Virus record (IMG/VR): IMGVR_UViG_3300030406_000618
Origin: an uncultured virus (IMG/VR IMGVR_UViG_3300030406_000618)
Taxonomy: Duplodnaviria > Heunggongvirae > Uroviricota > Caudoviricetes
Length of the DNA: 64,000 nucleotides
Strand: one strand, 5' to 3'
Below are positions 13,244-58,022 of the stretch, piece by piece. The notes beneath the pieces were generated by a model. The model did not search any database and was not told the origin of the DNA. It saw only the letters and a list, made by a program, of their open reading frames with translations. Position 1 is the first letter of the stretch. Each line of letters starts with the position of its first letter. The translations under genes were made by a program, and so were the position numbers.

Positions 13244-13513
13244 CTATGCTAGTTTAGTTCCTTTTTTCCAAGATTTAACGGCCCAATATGCAGGTGACAA
13301 ATTCTTTTGACCGTCTACTTTTTTTAATACTGCACCCATTCGTGCTAAGAAACTTTTTTGTCTTTCAGGATTATTTCTTTTTATACTGAGATTAGGGTCA
13401 CCAAACGATACTTTCTTAATATTTCCTGATGATTTATCTCTTACATAAACCATATATTTTTTATTTTTATTAGGATTTCTTAAGATTTTATTTAGTGGCT
13501 TGTCAGTCGACAT
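13244..13513 (-). CDS. Small basic protein (DUF6321/DUF5754-like)
   Basis: KKVSFGDP...RQKSFLAR...SPAYWA; homologous to 56256-56537. Confidence 0.7.
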   Translation of the reverse strand: MSTDKPLNKILRNPNKNKKYMVYVRDKSSGNIKKVSFGDPNLSIKRNNPERQKSFLARMGAVLKKVDGQKNLSPAYWAVKSWKKGTKLA

Positions 13514-13653
13514 TACTTCTTCTTTTTAATTTTAGCTTTGTCTTTCCATTTGTTTTGCATATCTCTATATGCTTCAGGTGAAATGGTAGAGTTCTTTTTA
13601 GAACGTGAGATACCCTTTTTCTTTCTTCTGTTAATATTTTCTACTAATGACAT
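13513..13653 (-). CDS. Basic micro-protein, 46 aa
   Basis: MSLVENINRRKKKGISRSKKNSTISPEAYRDMQNKWKDKAKIKKKK; TAATG-coupled on both sides. Confidence 0.75.
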   Translation of the reverse strand: MSLVENINRRKKKGISRSKKNSTISPEAYRDMQNKWKDKAKIKKKK

Positions 13654-13793
13654 TATACTACTACCTTCTTTTTCTTTTTAATTTTTAGCTTTGCAAAATC
13701 TTCGCCAGTAATTTTTTGAAAAGGCGGTGCTTGCTTAGCAATTTTCATTTGTTTAGGTGATAACTTAACCTTCTTACCGTAATGACTTGGCAT
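13653..13793 (-). CDS. Basic micro-protein, 46 aa
   Basis: MPSHYGKKVKLSPKQMKIAKQAPPFQKITGEDFAKLKIKKKKKVVV. Confidence 0.75.
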   Translation of the reverse strand: MPSHYGKKVKLSPKQMKIAKQAPPFQKITGEDFAKLKIKKKKKVVV

Positions 13794-13795
13794 AA

Positions 13796-13915
13796 CTATT
13801 TCTTCTTTTTAATCATAAGCATCATCTTAGCTTTTTTATCCATAGCTGATTTTGCTTTTTTCTTTTTAGGTGGTCTTCCTTTTTTTGAACCATAAGTTCC
13901 TTTTCCCATAGGCAT
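13796..13915 (-). CDS. Basic micro-protein, 39 aa, AT-hook-like KKGRPPKK
   Basis: MPMGKGTYGSKKGRPPKKKKAKSAMDKKAKMMLMIKKKK; AAGGAG RBS upstream. Confidence 0.75.
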   Translation of the reverse strand: MPMGKGTYGSKKGRPPKKKKAKSAMDKKAKMMLMIKKKK

Positions 13916-13916
13916 A

Positions 13917-14327
13917 TTAATTATTCTCCTTCTTTAATTTTCCTGCTACTTTCTCAGCACTCCTACCTACCGTATATCCACCGACACCGATAGTTAGTAA
14001 TGTCCATAATGCGTCAGGAAGTTCTAATAATATTCCCCAACCAAAAAATGCGTTGGCATAGGGAACAAGTAAATAGTTGTTAGCTATAATCAAAACCACT
14101 ATTAACATTAATAATGGTCTCCAATTTCTAGCTAGCCAACTTTCGCTTTTAGCTTCTGCTAAAATTATATTACTAGCAGTAGTAAGTTCTTTCATCTCAC
14201 CTGCTAAAACTTGTTGTTGTATAGTTTGTTTTATTTTTTCACGTTCTTCTTTACTATCTATGGCTTTATCTACAGTTTTAAATAAAGCAGATACCATAGG
14301 TGTAACTGCGCCTAATAACTGTATCAT
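13917..14327 (-). CDS. Holin (3TM, GTA-holin-like)
   Basis: AEAKSESWLARNWRP, hydrophobic helices, GYTVGRSAEK C-terminus. Confidence 0.8.
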   Translation of the reverse strand: MIQLLGAVTPMVSALFKTVDKAIDSKEEREKIKQTIQQQVLAGEMKELTTASNIILAEAKSESWLARNWRPLLMLIVVLIIANNYLLVPYANAFFGWGILLELPDALWTLLTIGVGGYTVGRSAEKVAGKLKKENN

Positions 14328-28566: not shown

Positions 28567-28739
28567 ATTACCGCCTTCTCACCTTCATGCGCTAAGTAAA
28601 TACCGTAAAAAAATACTGCGGTAAGTAACCAGTCTAACAATAAAGGTAATTCTAGTTGTTGAGTTACACTGCCTAGCAGTTGCAGGAGTAACCCTGCAAC
28701 GCAAATTAAAAATAAAAATAGTCTTAATGCATATATCAT
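28563..28739 (-). CDS. Small two-TM membrane protein, 58 aa
   Basis: MIYALRLFLFLICVAGLLLQLLG...; TAATG-coupled to the ArdC-like gene. Confidence 0.55.
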   Translation of the reverse strand: MIYALRLFLFLICVAGLLLQLLGSVTQQLELPLLLDWLLTAVFFYGIYLAHEGEKAVI

Positions 28740-29659
28740 TACGCAACCGCCTTTACATCTTGGCTTTCTGCCTTAGGTTGTAACTCATCAATAAAATTGA
28801 TTGCTTTTTGAGCATGGGCCATTGCAGTGAATAAAGCTTTTGGTTTGTCTTTAATATCTGCAATCCAACCATTAAGATATTTTGCGTGTTGGTCGCTTGG
28901 CTTTTTAGCTATCTGCAAAATATTAGATAATATTGCACTGCCTAATTCTGCAACCAACTCTTCCTGCGCATAACTTAGACACTTCTTAGACCCATTATCA
29001 AGTCTATCTATGCGTGATTTGTGGCCAGTCCAGTGAACCAATTCATGCAAGATAGTTGAGTAGTAAGCTTCTTGCTTTGTTTGGTCTGCTGTACTCTTCC
29101 AAGTGTCAAGCGGTGACATGTTAATATAATCCATAGACGGCACGTAGTAACAACGGCCCGCCTCAGTATGCTTAATAATTGCCTTAGTGTTTTTGATGTA
29201 CTCATCAACACCTGCAATTTTTTCTACTAAGCTTTTTGGCTTGTTGTTTTTTTGTTTGAAGTCTTCAGCATTAAGTGTTGTTTGCTCAAGATTAAAAACA
29301 TTATAAGACTTTAAGAATTTATAACCTTCATTAAACTTCTTACCGTCTTCACCTTCCTTGGTTGTTATATGCGTACCGTAATAAAATACTGGTGTAGCAG
29401 TCTCACCTTTAAGAACCCTGCCACCTGCACCGTTTATTTGTTTAAACGTGGCCCATGTATTACAAGGATATGGATTAAACATTTGCAACCAAAATAAATT
29501 GATACCGCTATAATTACGGCCCTGCAAATTATGAGGAAGTGAATAGTTACCTTGTTTGGTATGACCACCAAACGGCTTAAGCCAGTCAGTTCCAACGTCT
29601 TCCATGCGCTTAATAACTAAGTTCGCAACTTGTTGGACTTTTTGATTTGTTAAAGTCAT
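28739..29659 (-). CDS. ardC: ArdC-like antirestriction protein (ssDNA-binding plus zincin-like domain)
   Basis: YSGIN, WATFKQ, VLKGE, VFNLEQT, HELVHWTGH and YAQEELVAE motifs. Confidence 0.85.
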   Translation of the reverse strand: MTLTNQKVQQVANLVIKRMEDVGTDWLKPFGGHTKQGNYSLPHNLQGRNYSGINLFWLQMFNPYPCNTWATFKQINGAGGRVLKGETATPVFYYGTHITTKEGEDGKKFNEGYKFLKSYNVFNLEQTTLNAEDFKQKNNKPKSLVEKIAGVDEYIKNTKAIIKHTEAGRCYYVPSMDYINMSPLDTWKSTADQTKQEAYYSTILHELVHWTGHKSRIDRLDNGSKKCLSYAQEELVAELGSAILSNILQIAKKPSDQHAKYLNGWIADIKDKPKALFTAMAHAQKAINFIDELQPKAESQDVKAVA

Positions 29660-48532: not shown

Positions 48533-49366
48533 CTACTCTGCACACTTCTGGATTCTTACACCATCACCATCAATTAGGACTGCTCCCATTGACATATATG
48601 AAGTTGTAAGGTGTGCTACTTTCTCAGGGATATAGTTTACTTCAGTTCTTACGTCTGAACCTACGCCCATACCTAGAGATGATTTATGGAAAGCAATAGT
48701 GTGTCTATCTGTTGAACCAGATGTTGGTAGACCACTAAAACCCATCCACATGAAAGACAACCATCTTTTAGCTGTCATTCCACCTTTGTAAGGTAGATCT
48801 GCTTCACCGATATATTCAGCTCTTGAGAACTGATCTATATCTAATAGGTCAGACCACTGTTTTGGACCGACTACCCAGTATCTTTGTCCATCATCTGGCA
48901 CATCATTGTTACCAAAGATTTCAAAAACATTCTGAGCTTTGTCTAAGTTCATACCAGTAGTACTACCAGCAGAGTTATTTGCTAGTGCAGTTGCACCTGA
49001 ATTGTAAGTATCTGTGATGATTTCATCAGTCTTACGACCTAGAGCATATGCAGCATTTTGTGCTACAATATTTCTCTCATCAATATTTACTTTCAATTCG
49101 TCTAGTTTGTCTACGTAATCAGCAGCATAAAAGTCTGATAGTGTTGCAGTTACATTTGAGTGTACTGAGTTCATAGCGACAACCTCAGCGTGTCTTGCTT
49201 TAGTTGAAGCAGAACCTTTCGCTACTTTTTGGAACTGAACAGTATTTCCCTTTACACCATTGACATTACGTACCATGGACTTCAATTTTGAGCCCATACG
49301 TTGATAAGCCATGTGAACTTCAGCTTCAAACTGTTTCACAAATGCTTGATCTATTGTTGCTGTCAT
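48533..49366 (-). CDS. Major capsid protein (BPP-1-like)
   Basis: IDQAFVKQFEAEVHMAYQRMGSKL...DKLDELK..AAYALGRKTD. Confidence 0.88.
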   Translation of the reverse strand: MTATIDQAFVKQFEAEVHMAYQRMGSKLKSMVRNVNGVKGNTVQFQKVAKGSASTKARHAEVVAMNSVHSNVTATLSDFYAADYVDKLDELKVNIDERNIVAQNAAYALGRKTDEIITDTYNSGATALANNSAGSTTGMNLDKAQNVFEIFGNNDVPDDGQRYWVVGPKQWSDLLDIDQFSRAEYIGEADLPYKGGMTAKRWLSFMWMGFSGLPTSGSTDRHTIAFHKSSLGMGVGSDVRTEVNYIPEKVAHLTTSYMSMGAVLIDGDGVRIQKCAE

Positions 49367-53045: not shown

Positions 53046-53257
53046 TATGTTTCTTGTCCTTCTGTAAAAAATCCAGCTCCACCAGCTCTTGTAAACAATG
53101 ATCTATTACCGAGCTTACCTTCGATAAATCTTTTTTTTCTTTTAGCCATAGCTTCTTCTTGTTCTTTTTTTATACGTTCTTCCTCCATACGCTTTTCTTT
53201 TAATTGTCTTTCTAGCTCTGGATCAGGCTTATATTTTGGTGTTCTTAAAAATCCCAT
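53045..53257 (-). CDS. Small charged hypothetical protein
   Basis: 70 aa, G.RSLF motif, coupled. Confidence 0.6.
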   Translation of the reverse strand: MGFLRTPKYKPDPELERQLKEKRMEEERIKKEQEEAMAKRKKRFIEGKLGNRSLFTRAGGAGFFTEGQET

Positions 53258-53652
53258 TGTTCACAACCATGTTTCTTTAAGTATTTATATAACTGAAAAG
53301 GGGTAATAATCAATCTATTTATTCCTAGCACTCTCATAATGACAGTTACACAAGAATGTTCTCTCAACCATGCAGCTTGAAATAATCTCCACTTATGGCG
53401 AAATGTCTTGCATTTTAAAATAATACCATCATGTTGTTTTATATAGACCATCATCTGATCTACTTCTGTACCATCTATAATATTTAAGTCTAATCTTCTG
53501 TGTATATGTTCTACTACCATCCATTTATCTTTTTTTGGAAAGTATGCAAAAGCACCACAATGTGCCATCCCATTTTTTCTGAACCTGTGATACCACTCAT
53601 GGTTTGGTGGATCATAAAAAAATACTAGCCATTCCTTCGGAAAATATCCCAC
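53245..53652 (-). CDS. Putative permuted papain-like (NlpC/P60-type) protein
   Basis: His (HCG) before Cys (SCV), C-terminal TPFQLY. Confidence 0.45.
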   Translation of the reverse strand: MGYFPKEWLVFFYDPPNHEWYHRFRKNGMAHCGAFAYFPKKDKWMVVEHIHRRLDLNIIDGTEVDQMMVYIKQHDGIILKCKTFRHKWRLFQAAWLREHSCVTVIMRVLGINRLIITPFQLYKYLKKHGCEQWDF

Positions 53653-55148
53653 TTTTTCCTCCTGTTCATAGAACTACGATCAAATATATTCCAGTTCTTA
53701 TAAGCATTAGATACTTGTGGTTTTGCTGGACCTATAGTTAATGATCTACCTTCTCCTGCACCTAACATTAAATATTGTAGTGCATCATGTACGTGTGAAA
53801 ATTTATTTTTATTAGGTTTATCCTCATATCTTTCTCCAGAAGTTTGTATTCTTCTATAGTGGTATCCACCAAGAAAACCTTTTCTTAGTTGTTTACAGGA
53901 TGGCGATAGTAAGAAACCAGACTTACCATCAACCATCCTATTTAATGCAGCTTCTACTGATTCTATTCGTAGAGATACATCATTTGATGGAGCTGGAAAG
54001 GCTTGGATACCTTGTTGTCTTAGTATCTGAAAAGGAGTAGTTTCATCTGTCTGTGCCCTAAAATCTCCAGCTGGATCACCAAATATTTTTAAATCTTTAT
54101 CTGCACAATGTTTAATAATCTCATGTTTTAGTAATTCACTAAATTTAACTGTGCCTATATCAAAACAAACTAATTCATGAAGTATCAACCATCTACCATC
54201 TGGTAGCTTTTGACCAAATACTGCAGAAGGTGTTAAGCCAAAGTCTAATCCAATATATACTGTAGTAGGTGCAAAAGGTATTTCTTCATCTGCTATATGG
54301 ACATCTTCTCTAAATGATCCATATACCAGTTTACCATCTTCTATAGTTCCTAATCTATTTAAAACATAAACATCAATCCAACTTTTAGATTTTCCTCTGA
54401 TAATATTTGGATAGTAATCTGGGGTAACATTTCTGATATTTTCTGCTGTATCATTAAGTACATAACCTTTAATTTTATCATCTTCTTTTTTTTCAATCAT
54501 TCCTGGAGGCTGTACAAAAAACTTCCAGTTATCTGGTTTAACTAACATTACAGATTCTTCTTGACTCATATGATCTGGAAAAGGAACTTCTCCAGACATA
54601 ATAGACCACCAATGATCTTCATCAGGTGCGTTAGTATCTGCTATTACACCATACCATGATGGTCCACCATCTTTCATAGAAGGATATCTACCTACACGCA
54701 TTGTACACGCATCTACAATAGATTTAGGAATCTCTCTTGCTTCATTTATCCATACACCAGTTAATTCTAAAGACAAGAGTTTCTTGACATCTTCAGGTCT
54801 ATCTAGTGCTAAAAAAATAACTTCTAGTTCTACATCACCTACATGAATGTTATGTGTATACGGAACTGAATATGTAAAGTTTCCAAATGAGTTTTCTGGA
54901 AACCAATCTAACCATGTTTTGATTGTTGTAGTCTTTAACTGTGGGTTAGTATTTCTTATAACTGCCCATCTAGATTTACGTTTACCATCTGGACTAGGTG
55001 TTTGTTTTAATGCACGTCTAAATAATTCAATACAGCAGGATACAGATTTACCAGATCCTACTGGACCACGTACACCTCTAAAGAAAGATTCATCCTTCAT
55101 AAAGGATTTAATAACCTCTCCAGGTGCTTTATAATTTAATTCTGTCAA
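53625..55148 (-). CDS. terL: Terminase large subunit
   Basis: GPVGSGKS, VWINEARE, GLDFG and HVHDALQY motifs. Confidence 0.93.
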   Translation of the reverse strand: MTELNYKAPGEVIKSFMKDESFFRGVRGPVGSGKSVSCCIELFRRALKQTPSPDGKRKSRWAVIRNTNPQLKTTTIKTWLDWFPENSFGNFTYSVPYTHNIHVGDVELEVIFLALDRPEDVKKLLSLELTGVWINEAREIPKSIVDACTMRVGRYPSMKDGGPSWYGVIADTNAPDEDHWWSIMSGEVPFPDHMSQEESVMLVKPDNWKFFVQPPGMIEKKEDDKIKGYVLNDTAENIRNVTPDYYPNIIRGKSKSWIDVYVLNRLGTIEDGKLVYGSFREDVHIADEEIPFAPTTVYIGLDFGLTPSAVFGQKLPDGRWLILHELVCFDIGTVKFSELLKHEIIKHCADKDLKIFGDPAGDFRAQTDETTPFQILRQQGIQAFPAPSNDVSLRIESVEAALNRMVDGKSGFLLSPSCKQLRKGFLGGYHYRRIQTSGERYEDKPNKNKFSHVHDALQYLMLGAGEGRSLTIGPAKPQVSNAYKNWNIFDRSSMNRRKKWDIFRRNG

Positions 55149-55336
55149 GCAATACCATTATCTACAGATTTTTTAATTAATTTGTAGATAGTTTCTGGTA
55201 GTAAAGATTCGATAAACTTATCAGCTTCTTTATCAGAGAATCGTAAGTCATCAGGATAATGTTTGAAATGTTCTTTCTTCACTATCTTACGAAGTCTTTG
55301 ACGATCCTCGTAAGATAGCTCCTCTGCGTACCTCAT
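55145..55336 (-). CDS. Hypothetical protein
   Basis: 63 aa overlapping the terL start. Confidence 0.6.
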   Translation of the reverse strand: MRYAEELSYEDRQRLRKIVKKEHFKHYPDDLRFSDKEADKFIESLLPETIYKLIKKSVDNGIA

Positions 55337-55338
55337 GT

Positions 55339-55449
55339 TTAATTAAATATTAATCCTAAGATTATTAAAGTAGGAATAGCACATACAAATATTTTTCCTT
55401 TGTAATTAAGTCTATCCCACTTTCTTTGTATTTTTACTATTAAATCCAT
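55339..55449 (-). CDS. Micro-protein with C-terminal TM, 36 aa
   Basis: MDLIVKIQRKWDRLNYKGKIFVCAIPTLIILGLIFN; TAATG-coupled. Confidence 0.6.
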   Translation of the reverse strand: MDLIVKIQRKWDRLNYKGKIFVCAIPTLIILGLIFN

Positions 55450-55619
55450 TATGCTCTCGCTTTCTTTTTAGCTGTTGCTGATAGATCTTTGAAATGTACT
55501 AAAGGTTTACTAGATGCAGTATGAGTCTTGCCTGAATGTAATTTACCATTAGGCATTTTATGATATGCACCTTTGTGTTCAGTACCATTTTTAAAATAAT
55601 GTTTTACGCCTTTGCCCAT
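55449..55619 (-). CDS. His/Lys-rich micro-protein, 56 aa
   Basis: MGKGVKHYFKNGTEHKGAYHKMPNGKLHSGKTHTASSKPLVHFKDLSATAKKKARA. Confidence 0.75.
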   Translation of the reverse strand: MGKGVKHYFKNGTEHKGAYHKMPNGKLHSGKTHTASSKPLVHFKDLSATAKKKARA

Positions 55620-55729
55620 TACTTTTTCTTCTTACTAGCCATAATCTTTTTCTTCAAAGCAGGTGGAAGTTTGTTCTGTTTTCCTTTTAGCTTTTTAGAT
55701 CCAGCAGCTGGTTTTTTCATTCCATACAT
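55619..55729 (-). CDS. Basic micro-protein, 36 aa
   Basis: MYGMKKPAAGSKKLKGKQNKLPPALKKKIMASKKKK; AGGAGG RBS. Confidence 0.75.
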   Translation of the reverse strand: MYGMKKPAAGSKKLKGKQNKLPPALKKKIMASKKKK

Positions 55730-55977
55730 TATGATACCCTCCTAAACGGTTTTGTTTTGGCAGATATAGATTTGGGTTGTCTTACAAACTGTTTCCCTTT
55801 CTTACTGCCTTTTCTCTTAGCTCTAGTTGTAGCTGCATACTCTGCAGGAGTCAATGCTTTGATCGCAGCTTCTGGTAAGTAGCGTTCACCAGTTTTGGCA
55901 GATGGCTTTCCAGATTTGGTTCTCCATTTCTGGTTAGTCCATGCTTTCAAACTTTTTTGAGATTTAGATAAAGCCAC
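55729..55977 (-). CDS. Basic protein, DUF5872-like C-terminal half
   Basis: QKSLKAWTNQKWRTKSG...RYLP...KKGKQFV. Confidence 0.75.
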   Translation of the reverse strand: MALSKSQKSLKAWTNQKWRTKSGKPSAKTGERYLPEAAIKALTPAEYAATTRAKRKGSKKGKQFVRQPKSISAKTKPFRRVS

Positions 55978-55978
55978 T

Positions 55979-56089
55979 TTATTTTCCTTTTATTACTTTA
56001 CTTAAAGTCTGTGCTTGTTTTTTATGTGAATTAGAAGCTTTCTTTAAACCTTTAATTACTTTTTTTATTGTCTTAATTTTCTTTTTCAT
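55979..56089 (-). CDS. Basic amphipathic micro-protein, 36 aa
   Basis: MKKKIKTIKKVIKGLKKASNSHKKQAQTLSKVIKGK; GGAGG RBS. Confidence 0.7.
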   Translation of the reverse strand: MKKKIKTIKKVIKGLKKASNSHKKQAQTLSKVIKGK

Positions 56090-56262
56090 TATCTATATCC
56101 TCCACCTTTTGCTTTATATTGTTTAGCTAACATCTGAGCCTTCCTTGCTGACCATTGCCCAGGCTTTCCTCCTTTTCCTCCAGCTTTAATACGATTAAAT
56201 AAACTTTTTCTCATTCCAGGCTTGGTATAATTACCTGCCTCATTGACTTTACTCTTTACCAT
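56089..56262 (-). CDS. Basic protein, DUF5872-like N-terminal half, 57 aa
   Basis: YTKPGMRKSLFNRIKAGGKGGKPGQWSARKAQMLAKQYKAKGGGY. Confidence 0.78.
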   Translation of the reverse strand: MVKSKVNEAGNYTKPGMRKSLFNRIKAGGKGGKPGQWSARKAQMLAKQYKAKGGGYR

Positions 56263-56537
56263 TTTGATTTATTAGCCCAAAACGCAGCTGACATCTTGCC
56301 TTTGGCTATATTTTTTCGATGTCTAGCTTTAAATGATTTTCTTTTCATTTTCATTCTCTTAGACTCTCCTGCTTTTGGTTTACCAGCTGTACTAGCTCCC
56401 TGTTCACCATATCTAATAGTTTTTATTTTATTGCCTTCTTTGGCGACTACGACATGAGATTTTTTAGGATGATTAGGGGTACGTTTAGGTTTGTTATATC
56501 CAGATACACCTATCCTTTTTAAAAGGCTTTGGCTCAT
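56256..56537 (-). CDS. Small basic protein (DUF6321/DUF5754-like)
   Basis: KTIRYGEQG...RKSFKARH...SAAFWA; homologous to 13244-13513. Confidence 0.7.
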   Translation of the reverse strand: MSQSLLKRIGVSGYNKPKRTPNHPKKSHVVVAKEGNKIKTIRYGEQGASTAGKPKAGESKRMKMKRKSFKARHRKNIAKGKMSAAFWANKSKW

Positions 56538-56884
56538 TTTATACTAATCAATAAATTACTAGGATCTTTTATTGCAGATAATAAACCATTAGCAAACTTT
56601 TTATAACTATTAGTCATTTTTTTTACACCAATAGTATTAAAGTTATCTACATTGTTCATCATAGCTTTAAAACCTAAAGCACCAGTATCTTTAAGAAATG
56701 AATTCTTTAATGTAGATTTATTATAACCTATCTCTTTAAATGTATTAACTTGTTTATCAGATAAACCAGACCAATACTTATTAAAAACGTCATTATCTTC
56801 CATTAACCTTATTAATTCTTTCTCTTTTATCTTTTTTGATGTGTTTTTTGCACCAGGCAACATTGATTGTCTTGTTTTAACCAT
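56534..56884 (-). CDS. Hypothetical protein
   Basis: 116 aa, ATGA-coupled. Confidence 0.55.
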   Translation of the reverse strand: MVKTRQSMLPGAKNTSKKIKEKELIRLMEDNDVFNKYWSGLSDKQVNTFKEIGYNKSTLKNSFLKDTGALGFKAMMNNVDNFNTIGVKKMTNSYKKFANGLLSAIKDPSNLLISIK

Positions 56885-56914: not shown

Positions 56915-57142
56915 TCAACGCTGTTTGTAGTGTTCATAACATAGAAAATAATAACTACCTACCTCGTTCTTGATATGAAACGGAGCAAATTCTCCACACT
57001 CACAACAACGACAATACTTAATGTGTTCTTTATGTGTCCATTTTAGTATTTGTAACAGATTGTAACACGGACCTTTTTCGCTATTAATGTGAGTAGAGGA
57101 CCTTTCTCTGTGCTGTCGCTCCTGTTTTCTAACCCCCCTCAT
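56915..57142 (-). CDS. Small Cys-rich hypothetical protein (start uncertain)
   Basis: CCEC...CYEH zinc-ribbon-like pattern. Confidence 0.45.
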   Translation of the reverse strand: MRGVRKQERQHRERSSTHINSEKGPCYNLLQILKWTHKEHIKYCRCCECGEFAPFHIKNEVGSYYFLCYEHYKQR

Positions 57143-57526
57143 CTAATCTAGGTCTATCTTGATAGAGAGATTTCCTCCTACACTGTGCTGTACCTTATCA
57201 GGAGCTTTGAACCCACTCCTATCTAGGATGTCCTTCGACGCCTCTAGCTTCACGTAATCAGACTTCGCATCTTGTGCGAGTCTTACGATAGTCTTGACTG
57301 CTGGGATAGCTCCCACCAGACCTATCTCTGCTATACGTGAGCGGTAGTACTCTTGTACCTTTGGAAGTCGTAGCGTCTTACTAGCAGTAACTCTACCAGC
57401 TTCTCCCTTTGCATATCCTGCTATTTGACTAGCTTTTGCTACGGAGCAACCTTCTGCTACGAGGGTATCAATTAGCTTACGTTGTTTGTTTGTAAGACCA
57501 TCAGGTCCTTTTATGTGACTGCCCAT
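57143..57526 (-). CDS. terS: Terminase small subunit
   Basis: LTNKQRKL...ASQIAGY...LRLPKV...ILDRSG; start moved to ATG 57526. Confidence 0.8.
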   Translation of the reverse strand: MGSHIKGPDGLTNKQRKLIDTLVAEGCSVAKASQIAGYAKGEAGRVTASKTLRLPKVQEYYRSRIAEIGLVGAIPAVKTIVRLAQDAKSDYVKLEASKDILDRSGFKAPDKVQHSVGGNLSIKIDLD

Positions 57527-57797
57527 AACGATAGATACCTTGCTACGGTTTATGTTGTCAAGTGAAAAATTGTAAACAAACGAGAGATGTTCCCTCTCTC
57601 GTGCTCTCTCCCTAGTGGGATGATCTAGGATCATCAGTTTAAAAGGTAAATAAAATTGACTTATTAGCGTAATAGCCATGACTAGTTGTCATGTCTATCA
57701 GTACGCCCATGTATCTCTAGTTCGCTCTGCTCCCAAGAGCTACTATGTTTCTCAGTCGAGCTGAGAATAACAAGCAATCCAATTTTATTTTTACTCT

Positions 57798-58022
57798 CTC
57801 TCGATAATGCTCCATTCGTGGCGACAGAGTTAGGGGGGGTATCAGCTATGTACACGCCACGAACTACCAGTAGATTCTTTCACCAGTCAAGCCATAAAGG
57901 CTCTCGGTGCAACAAGTTGCTTGACGTTTATATCACTTCGTGAAGCGATCAAACAACTGGTCGCACTGACTGTCTTAGAATCTATGGTTGCTAAAGTGGG
58001 CATTAACGAGAGATCGACTCTC
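57798..58022 (+). ncRNA. Candidate multi-branched structured RNA / leader
   Basis: Nested complementary stems (detailed in findings); G-T pairs favour the plus strand. Confidence 0.5.

Follow-up and report, generated by a model that had tools for sequence, protein, structure and literature searches.

A chain of translationally coupled micro-genes, six of them strongly basic, between the terminase genes of a Hodr-like pelagiphage

Organization of the locus

The window, a stretch of 64,000 nucleotides from an uncultured virus (IMG/VR record IMGVR_UViG_3300030406_000618), carries nine small open reading frames (ORFs) of 36-116 aa on its minus strand (55145-56884), lying end to end in the interval between the genes of the small and large terminase subunits, terS and terL. 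The nine coupled genes that a previous sequence-only reading had described in this interval were re-found and are given below in order as M1 to M9, together with M0, which stands outside the interval then considered and belongs to the same coupled chain. Homologues were counted in a survey of the 80 highest-scoring IMG/VR loci out of at least 585, a sample biased to two phage types.

57143..57679, minus strand: terS (small terminase subunit), 178 aa, opening the late operon on the 5' side of the array; PF03592 Terminase_2 E 3e-7, 31.5 bits (cut-off 26.1); phrog_2538 5e-12
56915..57142, minus strand: M0, 75 aa, Cys/His-rich, adjoining terS; homologue in locus L015 with 93% aa identity, dN/dS 0.12
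56534..56884, minus strand: M1, 116 aa, moderately basic (pI 9.9); homologues in 2 of the best 80 of at least 585 loci
56256..56537, minus strand: M2, 93 aa, Tlr6F/DUF5754-type protein, net charge +24; phrog_7595 1e-40; phrog_220 'minor head protein and DNA pilot' 3e-5
56089..56262, minus strand: M3, 57 aa, DUF5872 N-terminal half; motif GNYTKP...WSARKAQ...GGGY; phrog_17747 4e-34
55979..56089, minus strand: M4, 36 aa, Lys-rich, KKVIKGLKKAS family, between M3 and M5
55729..55977, minus strand: M5, 82 aa, GTG start, DUF5872 C-terminal half; motif SLKxWTxQKWRTKSGKPS..TGERYLP; phrog_14910 9e-38
55619..55729, minus strand: M6, 36 aa, Lys-rich (39% K); homologues in 11 of the best 80 of at least 585 loci
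55449..55619, minus strand: M7, 56 aa, His- and Lys-rich (11% His), carrying HKMPNGKLHSGKTH; homologues in 8 of the best 80 of at least 585 loci
55339..55449, minus strand: M8, 36 aa, with the C-terminal hydrophobic stretch IFVCAIPTLIILGLIF; homologues in 8 of the best 80 of at least 585 loci
55145..55336, minus strand: M9, 63 aa, pI 8.0 (not basic); found beside terL in phage Hodr and in 12 of the best 80 of at least 585 loci
53625..55148, minus strand: terL, large terminase subunit, 507 aa; phrog_2 9e-20, phrog_10250 7e-12

The junctions are mostly of the TAATG or ATGA type. A 1-nt TAATG overlap occurs four times, a 4-nt ATGA overlap joins M1 to M2 and a 7-nt overlap M2 to M3, gaps of 1 nt and 2 nt complete the chain, and M9 overlaps the TTG start of terL, as given in the ORF list, by 4 nt. 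Five of the nine ORFs are shorter than 60 aa, which would account for the five that are missing from the default ORF list. No terminator-like sites were found on scanning the interior of the array, and promoter-like sites were not in excess. The gene order in phage B, the bearer of this array, is terS, array, terL, portal, capsid, tail tube and internal virion proteins. These data, together with the selection analysis below, show nine real, translationally coupled small genes at the variable head of a late operon, that for packaging and structure, in a Hodr-like pelagiphage.

No family match was obtained for M1 or M7 in Pfam, PHROG or NCBIfam, or for M0 in Pfam or PHROG. Homologues of M6 are also present, as judged by eye, in Hodr and HTVC033P, M8 is probably a membrane anchor as read from its sequence, and M9 is always located immediately 5' of terL within the phage type of the window.

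Basicity and selection

The six consecutive ORFs M2 to M7, which had been singled out as Lys-rich and one of them, M7, as His-rich too, contain 23-39% K+R, the baseline being 11.3% (mean of 40 window ORFs of at least 150 aa), with pI values of 10.4-11.5 and net charges, in order, of +24, +14, +14, +20, +14 and +11. The minus strand is A-rich, and 7.8% of its 116 ORFs of 30-100 aa reach a K+R content of at least 28%. The array goes beyond chance.

The dN/dS ratios of the array genes against their relatives, calculated by the Nei-Gojobori method, were 0.06 for M2, 0.05-0.13 for M3, 0.08-0.26 for M5, 0.02 for M6 (9 synonymous changes and 1 non-synonymous with respect to L015) and 0.03-0.19 for M7, as compared with 0.07-0.09 for terL. 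For M9, the ratio was 0.06-0.15 against close relatives, with values as high as 0.42 for the two remotest ones, L013 among them. Such low values (0.02-0.26) indicate that M2, M3, M5, M6, M7 and M9 are real genes. Constraint was weaker on M4 (0.24-0.73), M8 (0.40-0.73) and M1 (0.45-0.46).

M2 and its homologue in phage A

The homology that had been proposed between the 93-aa protein, M2, and a protein of phage A was borne out by BLASTP (E 3e-5, 34% identity) and by phrog_7595, common to both, with phrog_220 matched by the two proteins over the same stretch. The phage A genes concerned are the following.

13244..13513, minus strand: 89-aa DUF5754/Tlr6F protein, homologue of M2; PF19058 8.5e-7, 29.4 bits (cut-off 27.4); phrog_7595 7e-12
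13513..13915, minus strand: three Lys-rich micro-ORFs (46, 46 and 39 aa) flanked by the holin and DUF5754 genes, the first matching phrog_25774 at 4e-18
13917..14327, minus strand: holin, 136 aa, directly upstream of the basic array; phrog_3427 'holin' 6e-34

M2 itself gave no Pfam match at E<=10, the PF19058 cut-off (27.4 bits) not being reached, whereas its phage A homologue passes that model; it is through this homology that M2 is classed, on sequence grounds, as a Tlr6F/DUF5754-type protein. The Pfam scan suggested by the sequence-only reading was thus productive for the phage A protein, with no direct match for M2 or for the DUF5872 halves. The AF2 model of M2 (pLDDT 85) matched BFVD structure predictions for proteins of giant viruses, a virophage and phages. 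Tlr6F/DUF5754 is conserved in polinton-like viruses, virophages, giant viruses and some phages (Yutin et al. 2015, PMC4642659; PMC12220804). Membership of PF19058 explains little, since the family has no known function.

The arrays had been attributed to unrelated phages. Phages A and B do belong to different groups, yet both are pelagiphage podoviruses and so are not wholly unrelated; between the 39-aa ORF of phage A and M6, BLASTP gave no alignment.

A DUF5872 domain divided between two genes

Neither M3, M5 nor the fused 132-aa protein of phage Hodr, which carries both phrog_17747 and phrog_14910, matched PF19197 (DUF5872) at E<=10 (gathering cut-off 27.5 bits), and six-frame searches of five phage records gave no PF19197 match either. 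For the halves this can be understood, since neither can span more than half of the model's 116 positions, and the composition of the proteins is biased. The link was made transitively. A profile of M5 retrieved 1078 cluster representatives, and of 80 scanned, taken from the matches at E<=1e-25, 34 contained PF19197 at E<=1e-4 and 14 were at or above the cut-off. The PF19197 match covered profile positions 2-111 and started about 50 residues upstream of the C-half match, and in 24 aligned fused proteins the M3 motifs (WSARKAQ, GGGY) were followed by the M5 motif (TGERYLP). Bacterial DUF5872 proteins pass PF19197 with 33.5 and 27.7 bits. By this sequence comparison M3 and M5, which align over the whole domain with the single-chain bacterial and polyvalent forms, are confirmed as the predicted two DUF5872 domains on separate genes.

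Hodr, many bacterial chromosomes and the polyvalent proteins have DUF5872 in one chain; the window, like most marine phages, encodes it by two genes that are read in different frames and that further genes often separate. The earlier description of a single cellular polypeptide is therefore supported by the bacterial chromosomal examples, but DUF5872 and DUF5754 belong to viruses no less than to cells; likewise, halves separated by a 36-aa ORF were found as described (M3/M4/M5), but marine phages normally have the split form, which is not peculiar to the window.

The co-domains in the 80 M5-profile proteins were ART-PolyVal (13), DUF5754 (11), NUDIX (2) and RadC, thioredoxin, PNK3P and adenylate kinase (1 each), with a MuF domain in none of these polyvalent-type proteins. 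Fusions of the C-half with M2 and of M2 with the N-half were also found. Bacterial DUF5872 proteins have Rho_N-like tails (PF07498 E 4e-4 and 1e-3, sub-threshold) and, in one Roseomonas protein, an Ala/Lys/Pro-rich tail resembling histone H1. Their gene neighbours are housekeeping genes, which argues that DUF5872 is not intrinsically a virion component. The domains of M2, M3 and M5 are folded and highly conserved.

Insertion between the halves and cassette exchange

In all 71 loci with both halves, among the best 80 of at least 585, the N-half lies upstream of the C-half. The gap between them ranges in these 71 loci from -7 to 2375 nt, being without insert in 12 and occupied by cargo in 59, and the cargo is of at least eight kinds, mostly micro-ORFs. 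This shows the DUF5872 N/C boundary to be a recurrent insertion site. Homologues of M7, in the six loci in which both halves are complete, lie between the halves in five (L013, L014, L022, L033 and L034) and downstream in L011.

M4 is identical at 110 of 111 nt to its counterpart in HTVC115P, a pelagiphage of unrelated type, whereas the flanks agree at 95/151 and 140/219 positions (63-64%). Moreover, none of the 12 sampled loci of the phage type to which the window belongs has M4 in the gap, and joins of the DUF5872 halves without M4 occur in metagenome contigs from two runs. The near-identity as against the diverged flanks, together with the absence from own-type loci, marks M4 as a recent arrival. 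Its family motif is kept across at least 120 viral contigs. On one side the exchanged tract is bordered by the conserved 3' end of the N-half gene, on the other by the opening codons of the C-half gene, and across marine phages the same modules appear in varying orders, free-standing or fused. Cassette exchange among marine phages is shown by these observations, in agreement with the interchangeable cassettes that had been postulated, as is the membership of the six basic array proteins in families circulating in those phages. Exchange may take place by homologous recombination between co-infecting phages, the conserved flanking genes serving as homology arms; no integrase or attachment-site machinery was seen.

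Phage morons, mosaic exchange and integron-like cassettes are familiar cases of small genes inserted at gene boundaries. The array resembles these in that small genes are swapped between unrelated phages, conserved flanks possibly acting as recombination arms, but differs from them in the repeated use of one boundary, that separating the two halves of a single domain family, in at least three phage types and with a cargo that consists mostly of micro-protein genes.

Genomic neighbourhoods

Among the best 80 of at least 585 loci, the most frequent neighbouring gene clusters were terS-like (45 ORFs), terL (31 + 11), portal (16) and endolysin (23), and a 147-aa family of unannotated function, phrog_2524, followed the C-half gene in 34. 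In a second set, the best-scoring 25 loci, biased to few phage types, the pair is placed between major head and tail genes, or just 5' of terL and portal. The suggested linkage to packaging or head genes consequently recurs in both of these biased sets, whereas many phages have lysis-gene neighbours: a holin in phage A, a lysozyme and a holin-like gene in HMO-2011 and an amidase, at which the module cluster ends, in HTVC033P. In HMO-2011-type phages, two membrane-protein genes stand between the DUF5872 halves, and the holin-like gene and lysozyme follow. Phage B has no holin and no free-standing endolysin near its array, its only endolysin-type match being inside an internal virion protein 13 kb off.

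Proposed function

The extreme basicity of the array proteins, the Rho_N-like and H1-like tails of bacterial DUF5872 proteins and the membership of these domains in polyvalent proteins hint at nucleic-acid binding and, possibly, at the condensation system that the sequence-only reading had in mind. The reading that we favour, though tentatively, is that the basic proteins bind nucleic acid and probably enter the capsid: they would be made late with the terminase, would coat or neutralise the phage DNA and would probably be packaged and released with it into the next host. Small and highly basic proteins of the virion interior, made late, are familiar from T4 (IPI-III), adenovirus (protein VII) and baculovirus (P6.9), and travel with the viral DNA, as is proposed for the array proteins; the array proteins share no sequence or fold similarity with them. 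No window protein had a sequence match in the PDB, and the AF2 models of fused DUF5872 (pLDDT 85) and M2 gave best Foldseek E values of 4 and 0.98 and best VIA Z values of 4.0 and 2.5 against solved folds, so that no DNA-binding fold, such as HU, H1 or HeH/Rho_N, was recognised. Weighing against the favoured reading, besides, are the lysis-gene neighbours of the modules in many phages, the housekeeping neighbours of bacterial DUF5872 genes, the lack of a MuF domain in the 80 polyvalent-type proteins and an ArfA-like module in some N-half fusion proteins, which would suggest the ribosome and not DNA as target.

In the survey of polyvalent proteins by Iyer et al. (2017, PMC5512222), these proteins are predicted to be delivered with the DNA, and solo versions of their domains beside phage structural genes to act in early invasion. 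Since DUF5872 and DUF5754 are elsewhere built into polyvalent proteins, those of the window are solo forms, although neither is found by name in sections 29 and 32 of that paper. As described for polyvalent proteins (PMC5512222), the array stands among the late/virion genes of a portal-terminase phage. Polyvalent proteins, however, combine at least two disparate domains per chain, while the nine array products of 36-116 aa are all single-module, each domain being a separate micro-gene and one domain pair itself split; no enzyme domain, MuF domain or processing peptidase was found in the array.

It is also conceivable, if rather unlikely, that the array proteins bind nucleic acid in the infected cell only, compacting or marking phage DNA for the terminase or shutting down the host nucleoid, and do not enter the virion. 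Their genes, flanked by terS and terL, are translated together with these two, and the housekeeping neighbours and the Rho_N-/H1-like tails of bacterial DUF5872 proteins suggest a capsid-free, nucleoid-associated role. Consistent with this, Tlr6F did not reach the significance threshold in purified particles in the PgVV study (bioRxiv 10.1101/2022.07.28.501842). A few Tlr6F peptides were reported there from the particles, and none were detected in infected cells. Capsid loading is nevertheless favoured by the recurrence of these domains in polyvalent proteins with ART-PolyVal, NUDIX and RadC, and by loci that have these genes at a distance from the terminase, among those for head and tail.

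Less probable still is a role of M4, M6 and M8 as lysis-associated membrane-active peptides, whether cationic amphipathic or small membrane proteins. The cationic 'disruptin' peptide of phage phiKT helps to breach the envelope, and the lysis-cassette location of such peptides is matched by the phage A array, beside a holin, and by HMO-2011-type loci, with the amidase of HTVC033P as a further instance, but not by the phage B array. M4 has hydrophobic residues 3-4 apart and a weak, sub-threshold Pfam antimicrobial-peptide match (E 0.02), and M8 has its hydrophobic tail; M2, M3 and M5, however, are folded, conserved domains with cellular and polyvalent relatives, and adjacency to lysis genes may only mirror shared late expression.

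Host-takeover factors aimed at the translation apparatus or RNA, mimicking small basic ribosome-binding proteins, would be similarly improbable. Size and charge resemble those of small ribosomal proteins, and the ribosome-rescue factor ArfA (PF03889) was found in 5 of 35 metagenomic N-half fusion proteins, with 25.9-31.4 bits (cut-off 25.5). Nevertheless, no window protein matches ArfA or ribosomal-protein families in Pfam or NCBIfam, the late-operon placement fits poorly, and the remaining fusion partners (ART, NUDIX, RadC, Rho_N-like) lead in other directions.

Finally, it is very improbable that the small ORFs arose by chance on an A-rich strand, or that they are selfish inserts in decay, useless to the phage: the Lys/Arg-rich ORFs of that strand and the weaker constraint on M4, M8 and M1 would agree with this view, but it is largely refuted by the strong purifying selection on M2, M3, M5, M6, M7 and M9, and is opposed by the existence of thousands of homologues, the retention of the M4 motif and the presence in a metatranscriptome library of window-identical pieces, possibly DNA carry-over.

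Genomic setting and gene layout

The window contains two pelagiphage-type podovirus genomes. Phage A, up to about 33 kb, resembles the HTVC011P-type T7-like pelagiphages, and phage B, from about 33 kb, resembles its closest isolate, Pelagibacter phage Hodr EXVC031P (72% nucleotide identity, with 42% of a 4.1-kb query aligned). The HTVC011P-like and Hodr-like genomes are joined on the same strand at about 32-35 kb, either as a natural junction or as two records placed end to end. In phage A, a 306-aa protein (28739-29659) matches phrog_7245, annotated as anti-restriction protein (1.5e-67). The late operon of phage B lies on the minus strand and comprises terS, the small-gene array, terL, three ORFs, portal, capsid, tail tube A and B, internal virion proteins and tail fibre; opposite-strand genes begin at 57988.

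Reference genes of the phage B late operon
57143-57679, minus strand: terS, first in late-operon order
53625-55148, minus strand: terL, after the array
48533-49366, minus strand: capsid gene

The interval between terS and terL (55145-56884) is tiled by nine ORFs, named M1 to M9 in that order (116, 93, 57, 36, 82, 36, 56, 36 and 63 aa), and a tenth, Cys/His-rich ORF of 75 aa adjoins terS. The ORF calls and their overlaps (four TAATG, one ATGA, one of 7 nt, gaps of 1-2 nt and a 4-nt overlap with terL) bear out the chain of nine coupled small genes proposed by the sequence-only reading. Five of the nine fall below 60 aa, a size that phage annotation routinely omits. Within the array no terminator-like site, no excess of promoter-like sites and no Rfam family match was found. 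This DNA also turns up in marine metagenome runs from 13 studies, and pieces of the region occur in three RNA libraries as contigs, which give no measure of transcription or of its level, may reflect DNA carry-over, and in which stretches without cover carry no meaning. Both sides of the array plus terL are occupied by Cys/His-rich ORFs, of 75 aa after terS (56915-57142) and of 135 aa after terL (53245-53652), neither with a family match; the former is conserved in L015, the nearest relative.

The six consecutive genes M2-M7 are as strongly basic as had been claimed, with K+R of 23-39%, pI of 10.4-11.5 and net charges adding up to +97, against a mean K+R of 11.3% in 40 long ORFs of the window. 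Nevertheless, composition alone is weak evidence for the array, since 28% K+R is reached by 7.8% of the small ORFs on the A-rich minus strand. It is the comparison with relatives that is decisive in showing that these ORFs are genes. The dN/dS values were 0.06 for M2, 0.05-0.13 for M3, 0.08-0.26 for M5, 0.02 for M6, and 0.03-0.19 for M7; M9 gave 0.06-0.15 when compared with its close relatives and as much as 0.42 with the most distant. These six share the range of terL (0.07-0.09). Constraint was weaker on M4 (0.24-0.73), M8 (0.40-0.73) and M1 (0.45-0.46), so that, among the five ORFs below 60 aa, M3, M6 and M7 are constrained like the terminase and M4 and M8 more weakly.

DUF5872 as one polypeptide and as two genes

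M3 matched phrog_17747 (4e-34) and M5 matched phrog_14910 (9e-38); in Hodr, both PHROGs fall in a single 132-aa protein. A profile of M5, the C-half, retrieved 1078 proteins (E<=1e-3) from 1.84 billion cluster representatives, many of them long (maximum 1112 aa). PF19197 (DUF5872) was matched at E<=1e-4 in 34 of 80 such proteins scanned with Pfam, 14 of the 80 being at or above the cut-off, with the match covering profile positions 2-111 and starting about 50 residues before that of the C-half. In an alignment of 24 proteins, the N-half motifs WSARKAQ and GGGY are followed by a short linker and the C-half motif TGERYLP. Moreover, with one genome per prokaryote species, at least 576 confirmed DUF5872 matches were obtained, each running unbroken over about 130 residues; the carriers include Azospirillum, Roseomonas, Methylobacterium, Sphingomonas and Pseudomonas kuykendallii. 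Ten of these loci were inspected (nine Pfam-scanned), and all but one had ordinary chromosomal neighbours, such as UvrD (two Sphingomonas), transporters and chemoreceptors, the exception being a Dehalococcoidia gene adjoining phage adaptor genes. In both Sphingomonas genomes (L289, L304; 1586-5600) the single-chain gene directly follows, on the same strand, the gene for the UvrD helicase.

M3 and M5 are therefore the two halves of a domain that elsewhere is one polypeptide, and the earlier statement of a cellular single-chain DUF5872 holds in substance, by profile, alignment and prokaryote scan. By Pfam's threshold, however, M3 and M5 are not DUF5872 members: the Pfam scan put forward as a check returned no direct match for any small protein of the array, and neither did NCBIfam or PDB-sequence searches. 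A six-frame search with PF19197 of five phage records and of G001, the nearest record, in which the array region is absent, gave no match either.

In the AlphaFold2 model of a fused bacterial-type DUF5872 (pLDDT 84.9, pTM 0.52), the N-half has two helices and the C-half four, and the low-confidence linker between them coincides exactly with the split point. PDB fold searches gave no usable match for this model, nor for that of M2 (pLDDT 85.2, pTM 0.72), and no claim of new folds is made. The predicted complex of N-half and C-half (score 0.01, mark 0.32) gave no answer and is neutral.

The junction between the halves

By tblastn, both halves were found in 15 cultured marine phages, infecting Pelagibacter, Roseobacter, Methylophilales and Puniceispirillum, in the order N then C in all; arithmetic on the tblastn tables gives about nine with abutting halves and six with inserts of about 0.1-1.8 kb. 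Among the best 80 of at least 585 IMG/VR loci with the C-half, the N-half was present in 71, always upstream and on the same strand.

Gap between N-half and C-half genes in IMG/VR loci, and its cargo
-7 to 2 nt: 12 loci; no cargo
15 nt: 2 loci; none seen
75-97 nt: 9 loci; Cys-rich ORF of 25-31 aa
141-145 nt: 6 loci; His-rich "HWM" ORF of about 47 aa
169-219 nt: 5 loci; homologues of M7
266-551 nt: 11 loci; M4-like ORFs (54-59 aa), a 46-aa ORF, or basic ORFs of 90-112 aa
624-931 nt: 25 loci, HMO-2011-like; mostly two membrane-type genes of 62 and 143 aa (one 232-aa ORF in four loci)
2375 nt: 1 locus; two membrane-type genes and a methanesulfonate-monooxygenase-like metabolic gene, as in HMO-2011 itself

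The junction is a recurrent insertion site, which could serve as a marker to track gene flow among marine phages. The methanesulfonate-monooxygenase-like auxiliary metabolic gene (360 aa) lies between the halves in L004 (phage HMO-2011; 2462-4823) and L064 (2834-5625); therefore, the junction also accepts metabolic genes. The Cys-rich micro-ORFs (M-R-R-Y-F-K-R-L-W-C-A..., 4-6 Cys) were seen in L055, L058, L065, L068, L071, L072, L074, L078 and L080.

Since the halves are in different frames or apart, they are two polypeptides in marine phages. Fusion by read-through or frameshift was considered and rejected: in the window the halves share a frame with seven stop codons between them, and where they are adjacent they lie in different frames with no evident slippery site. 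Termination-reinitiation coupling would be the preferred link.

Recent transfer of M4

The 36-aa M4 (56089..55979), which sits between the halves, has an equally placed counterpart ORF, identical in protein and in 110 of 111 nt, in HTVC115P, a 55-kb HMO-2011-type pelagiphage otherwise devoid of nucleotide similarity to the 4.1 kb queried around the array; the flanking genes are far less alike (95/151 identical in the N-half gene, 140/219 in the C-half gene). In none of twelve loci of the window's own phage type (terL 88-94% identical in amino acids) does the gap hold M4; it is empty in four, filled by the "HWM" ORF in five and by M7 in three. In L015, whose neighbouring conserved genes differ from those of the window by a synonymous divergence of 0.26-0.45, the N-half stop overlaps the C-half start. 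Furthermore, the halves are joined without M4 in contigs from an RNA-library run and from a DNA run, another contig carrying it. M4 is a recent arrival in this array, in keeping with the earlier proposal that basic micro-protein cassettes are interchangeable between phages. The HTVC115P-like tract spans the last N-half codons to about the first seven C-half codons, limits which fit an exchange by recombination within the conserved ends of both genes. A structured RNA or DNA element behind the 99% identity was rejected, there being no Rfam match and M4-like genes varying freely at synonymous sites (pS 0.40-0.75).

A degenerate search for the motif KKVIKGLKKA recovered at least 120 viral contigs, while an exact 50-nt piece of M4 had no match in IMG/VR. 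In 80 fetched loci the M4-like genes are mostly free-standing ORFs of 35-50 aa, with a downstream S-K-x-H-A-x-Q-A-K motif also kept; nine have DUF5872 halves nearby, and two form fusions with the N-half. M4 thus belongs to a real family. In L086, L094, L126, L137, L139, L160 and L161, M4-like peptides are fused to a VYPSAYAN...YKK.GG.Y module, which, from its resemblance by eye to WSARKAQ...YK..GGGY, may be a sister family of the N-half.

M2, module shuffling and neighbourhood

M2 matched phrog_7595 (1e-40) and, weakly and over one stretch, phrog_220 (minor head protein and DNA pilot). Both PHROGs are also matched by the 89-aa protein of phage A (13244-13513), which exceeds the Pfam cut-off for DUF5754 (29.4 against 27.4 bits) and aligns with M2 at E 3e-5, confirming their proposed homology. 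The suggested parallel with the basic array of phage A, placed between holin (phrog_3427, 6e-34) and capsid gene, holds for this homologue; since M6 and the 39-aa ORF of phage A gave no BLASTP alignment, their likeness is one of composition only. DUF5754 corresponds to Tlr6F, a protein conserved in some phages as well as in polinton-like viruses, virophages and giant viruses (PMC4642659, PMC12220804). In BFVD, the only matches of the M2 model were uncharacterised phage, giant-virus and virophage proteins, together with longer ones labelled ChaB and XkdF.

Fusions connect these families. M2 occurs as C-half+M2 (176 aa, many clusters), M2+N-half and C-half+110 aa+M2. The N-half was found inside 3800 longer proteins; in 18 that were read it is mostly C-terminal, behind chains of short basic modules with Gly/Lys linkers, including M4-like and M7-like ones. 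Among 35 N-half fusions scanned with Pfam, ArfA exceeded the cut-off in five and HNH_3 in one. The five (P0042, P0051, P0056, P0074 and P0118, from marine viral metagenomes) combine the N-half with an ArfA-like module (PF03889, 25.9-31.4 bits, cut-off 25.5). ArfA is an alternative ribosome-rescue factor, and phage-encoded ArfA-like peptides may be worth separate study. The 80 scanned C-half proteins contained ART-PolyVal (13), DUF5754 (11), NUDIX (2), YunG (2) and, once each, RadC, thioredoxin, PNK3P, adenylate kinase and DUF1737. By the definition of Iyer et al. 2017 (PMC5512222), such fusions count as polyvalent proteins; that paper places those of phages near late virion genes.

Within 4.5 kb of the DUF5872 pair, 80 loci yielded 532 ORFs of at least 110 aa in 146 clusters (48 representatives scanned), the largest being terS-like (45), a 178-aa family (41), phrog_2524 (34), terL (31 and 11), endolysin (23) and portal (16). 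In 25 further loci, from a polyvalent-protein query, one phage type has the pair between major head protein and tail genes, and in one locus a C-half+M2 fusion immediately precedes terL and portal. The expected linkage to packaging and head genes recurs, and lysis genes (endolysin, holin) are frequent company too; late expression is the common denominator. Three orphan families (DUF5872, DUF5754/Tlr6F and the KKVIKGLKKAS peptides) are tied together by fusion and neighbourhood.

Possible function and significance

It is quite possible, if short of probable, that these proteins are made late, bind nucleic acids and are packaged with the DNA. Binding is suggested by the extreme positive charge of the array proteins, by domain partners within the polyvalent proteins, by a Rho_N-like end motif in two of eight scanned bacterial DUF5872 proteins (PF07498, E 4e-4 and 1e-3, below cut-off) and by a long Ala/Lys/Pro-rich, histone-H1-like tail seen by eye in Roseomonas (L263, 4848-5822); that the models of DUF5872 and M2 match no solved fold is neutral or counts against it. 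DNA handling purely inside the cell is considered unlikely. On packaging itself, the PgVV-14T study (bioRxiv 10.1101/2022.07.28.501842) reports that Tlr6F mRNA is expressed and that particles held few Tlr6F peptides, below the significance threshold. Action as lysis or membrane peptides would agree with the lysis-gene neighbours and the membrane-like M8, would apply to some members only, and seems improbable; ribosome or RNA targeting, which the ArfA fusions recall in a minority of the scanned proteins, is likewise given little chance. That the array ORFs are non-functional is hardly credible beside the terminase-like constraint on six of them.

The families DUF5872 and DUF5754/Tlr6F have been described before, as have the concept of polyvalent proteins and the mosaic exchange of genes. 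In a limited search of the literature (supplements excluded), no report was found of DUF5872 as a habitual split pair in marine phages, of its junction as a recurrent dock for micro-genes and a metabolic gene, of the DUF5872-Tlr6F link by fusion or neighbourhood, or of the recent 111-bp exchange between unrelated SAR11 phages; a limited search likewise returned nothing on array micro-proteins in pelagiphages.

More speculatively, and with rather less expectation than for packaging with the DNA, the DUF5872 pair and Tlr6F/DUF5754 might form the conserved core of a virion-borne protein set that is bound to DNA and that tailed phages have in common with polinton-like and giant viruses, the split junction being a standing micro-gene dock. 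Through it, marine phages would trade a common pool of KKVIKGLKKAS peptides, His-rich, Cys-rich and ArfA-like modules and even metabolic genes. Such a putative dock would resemble an integron in exchanging cassettes, but would do so by homologous recombination alone. Should these proteins indeed accompany the DNA, they would represent a widespread, unstudied layer of marine phage-host interaction and provide a first suggested role for Tlr6F, conserved from phages to giant viruses. These functional readings are directly testable in cultured phages. SAR11 are the ocean's most abundant bacteria, and the 111-bp M4 gene, moved between unrelated phages of this group, offers a clean natural example of such exchange.
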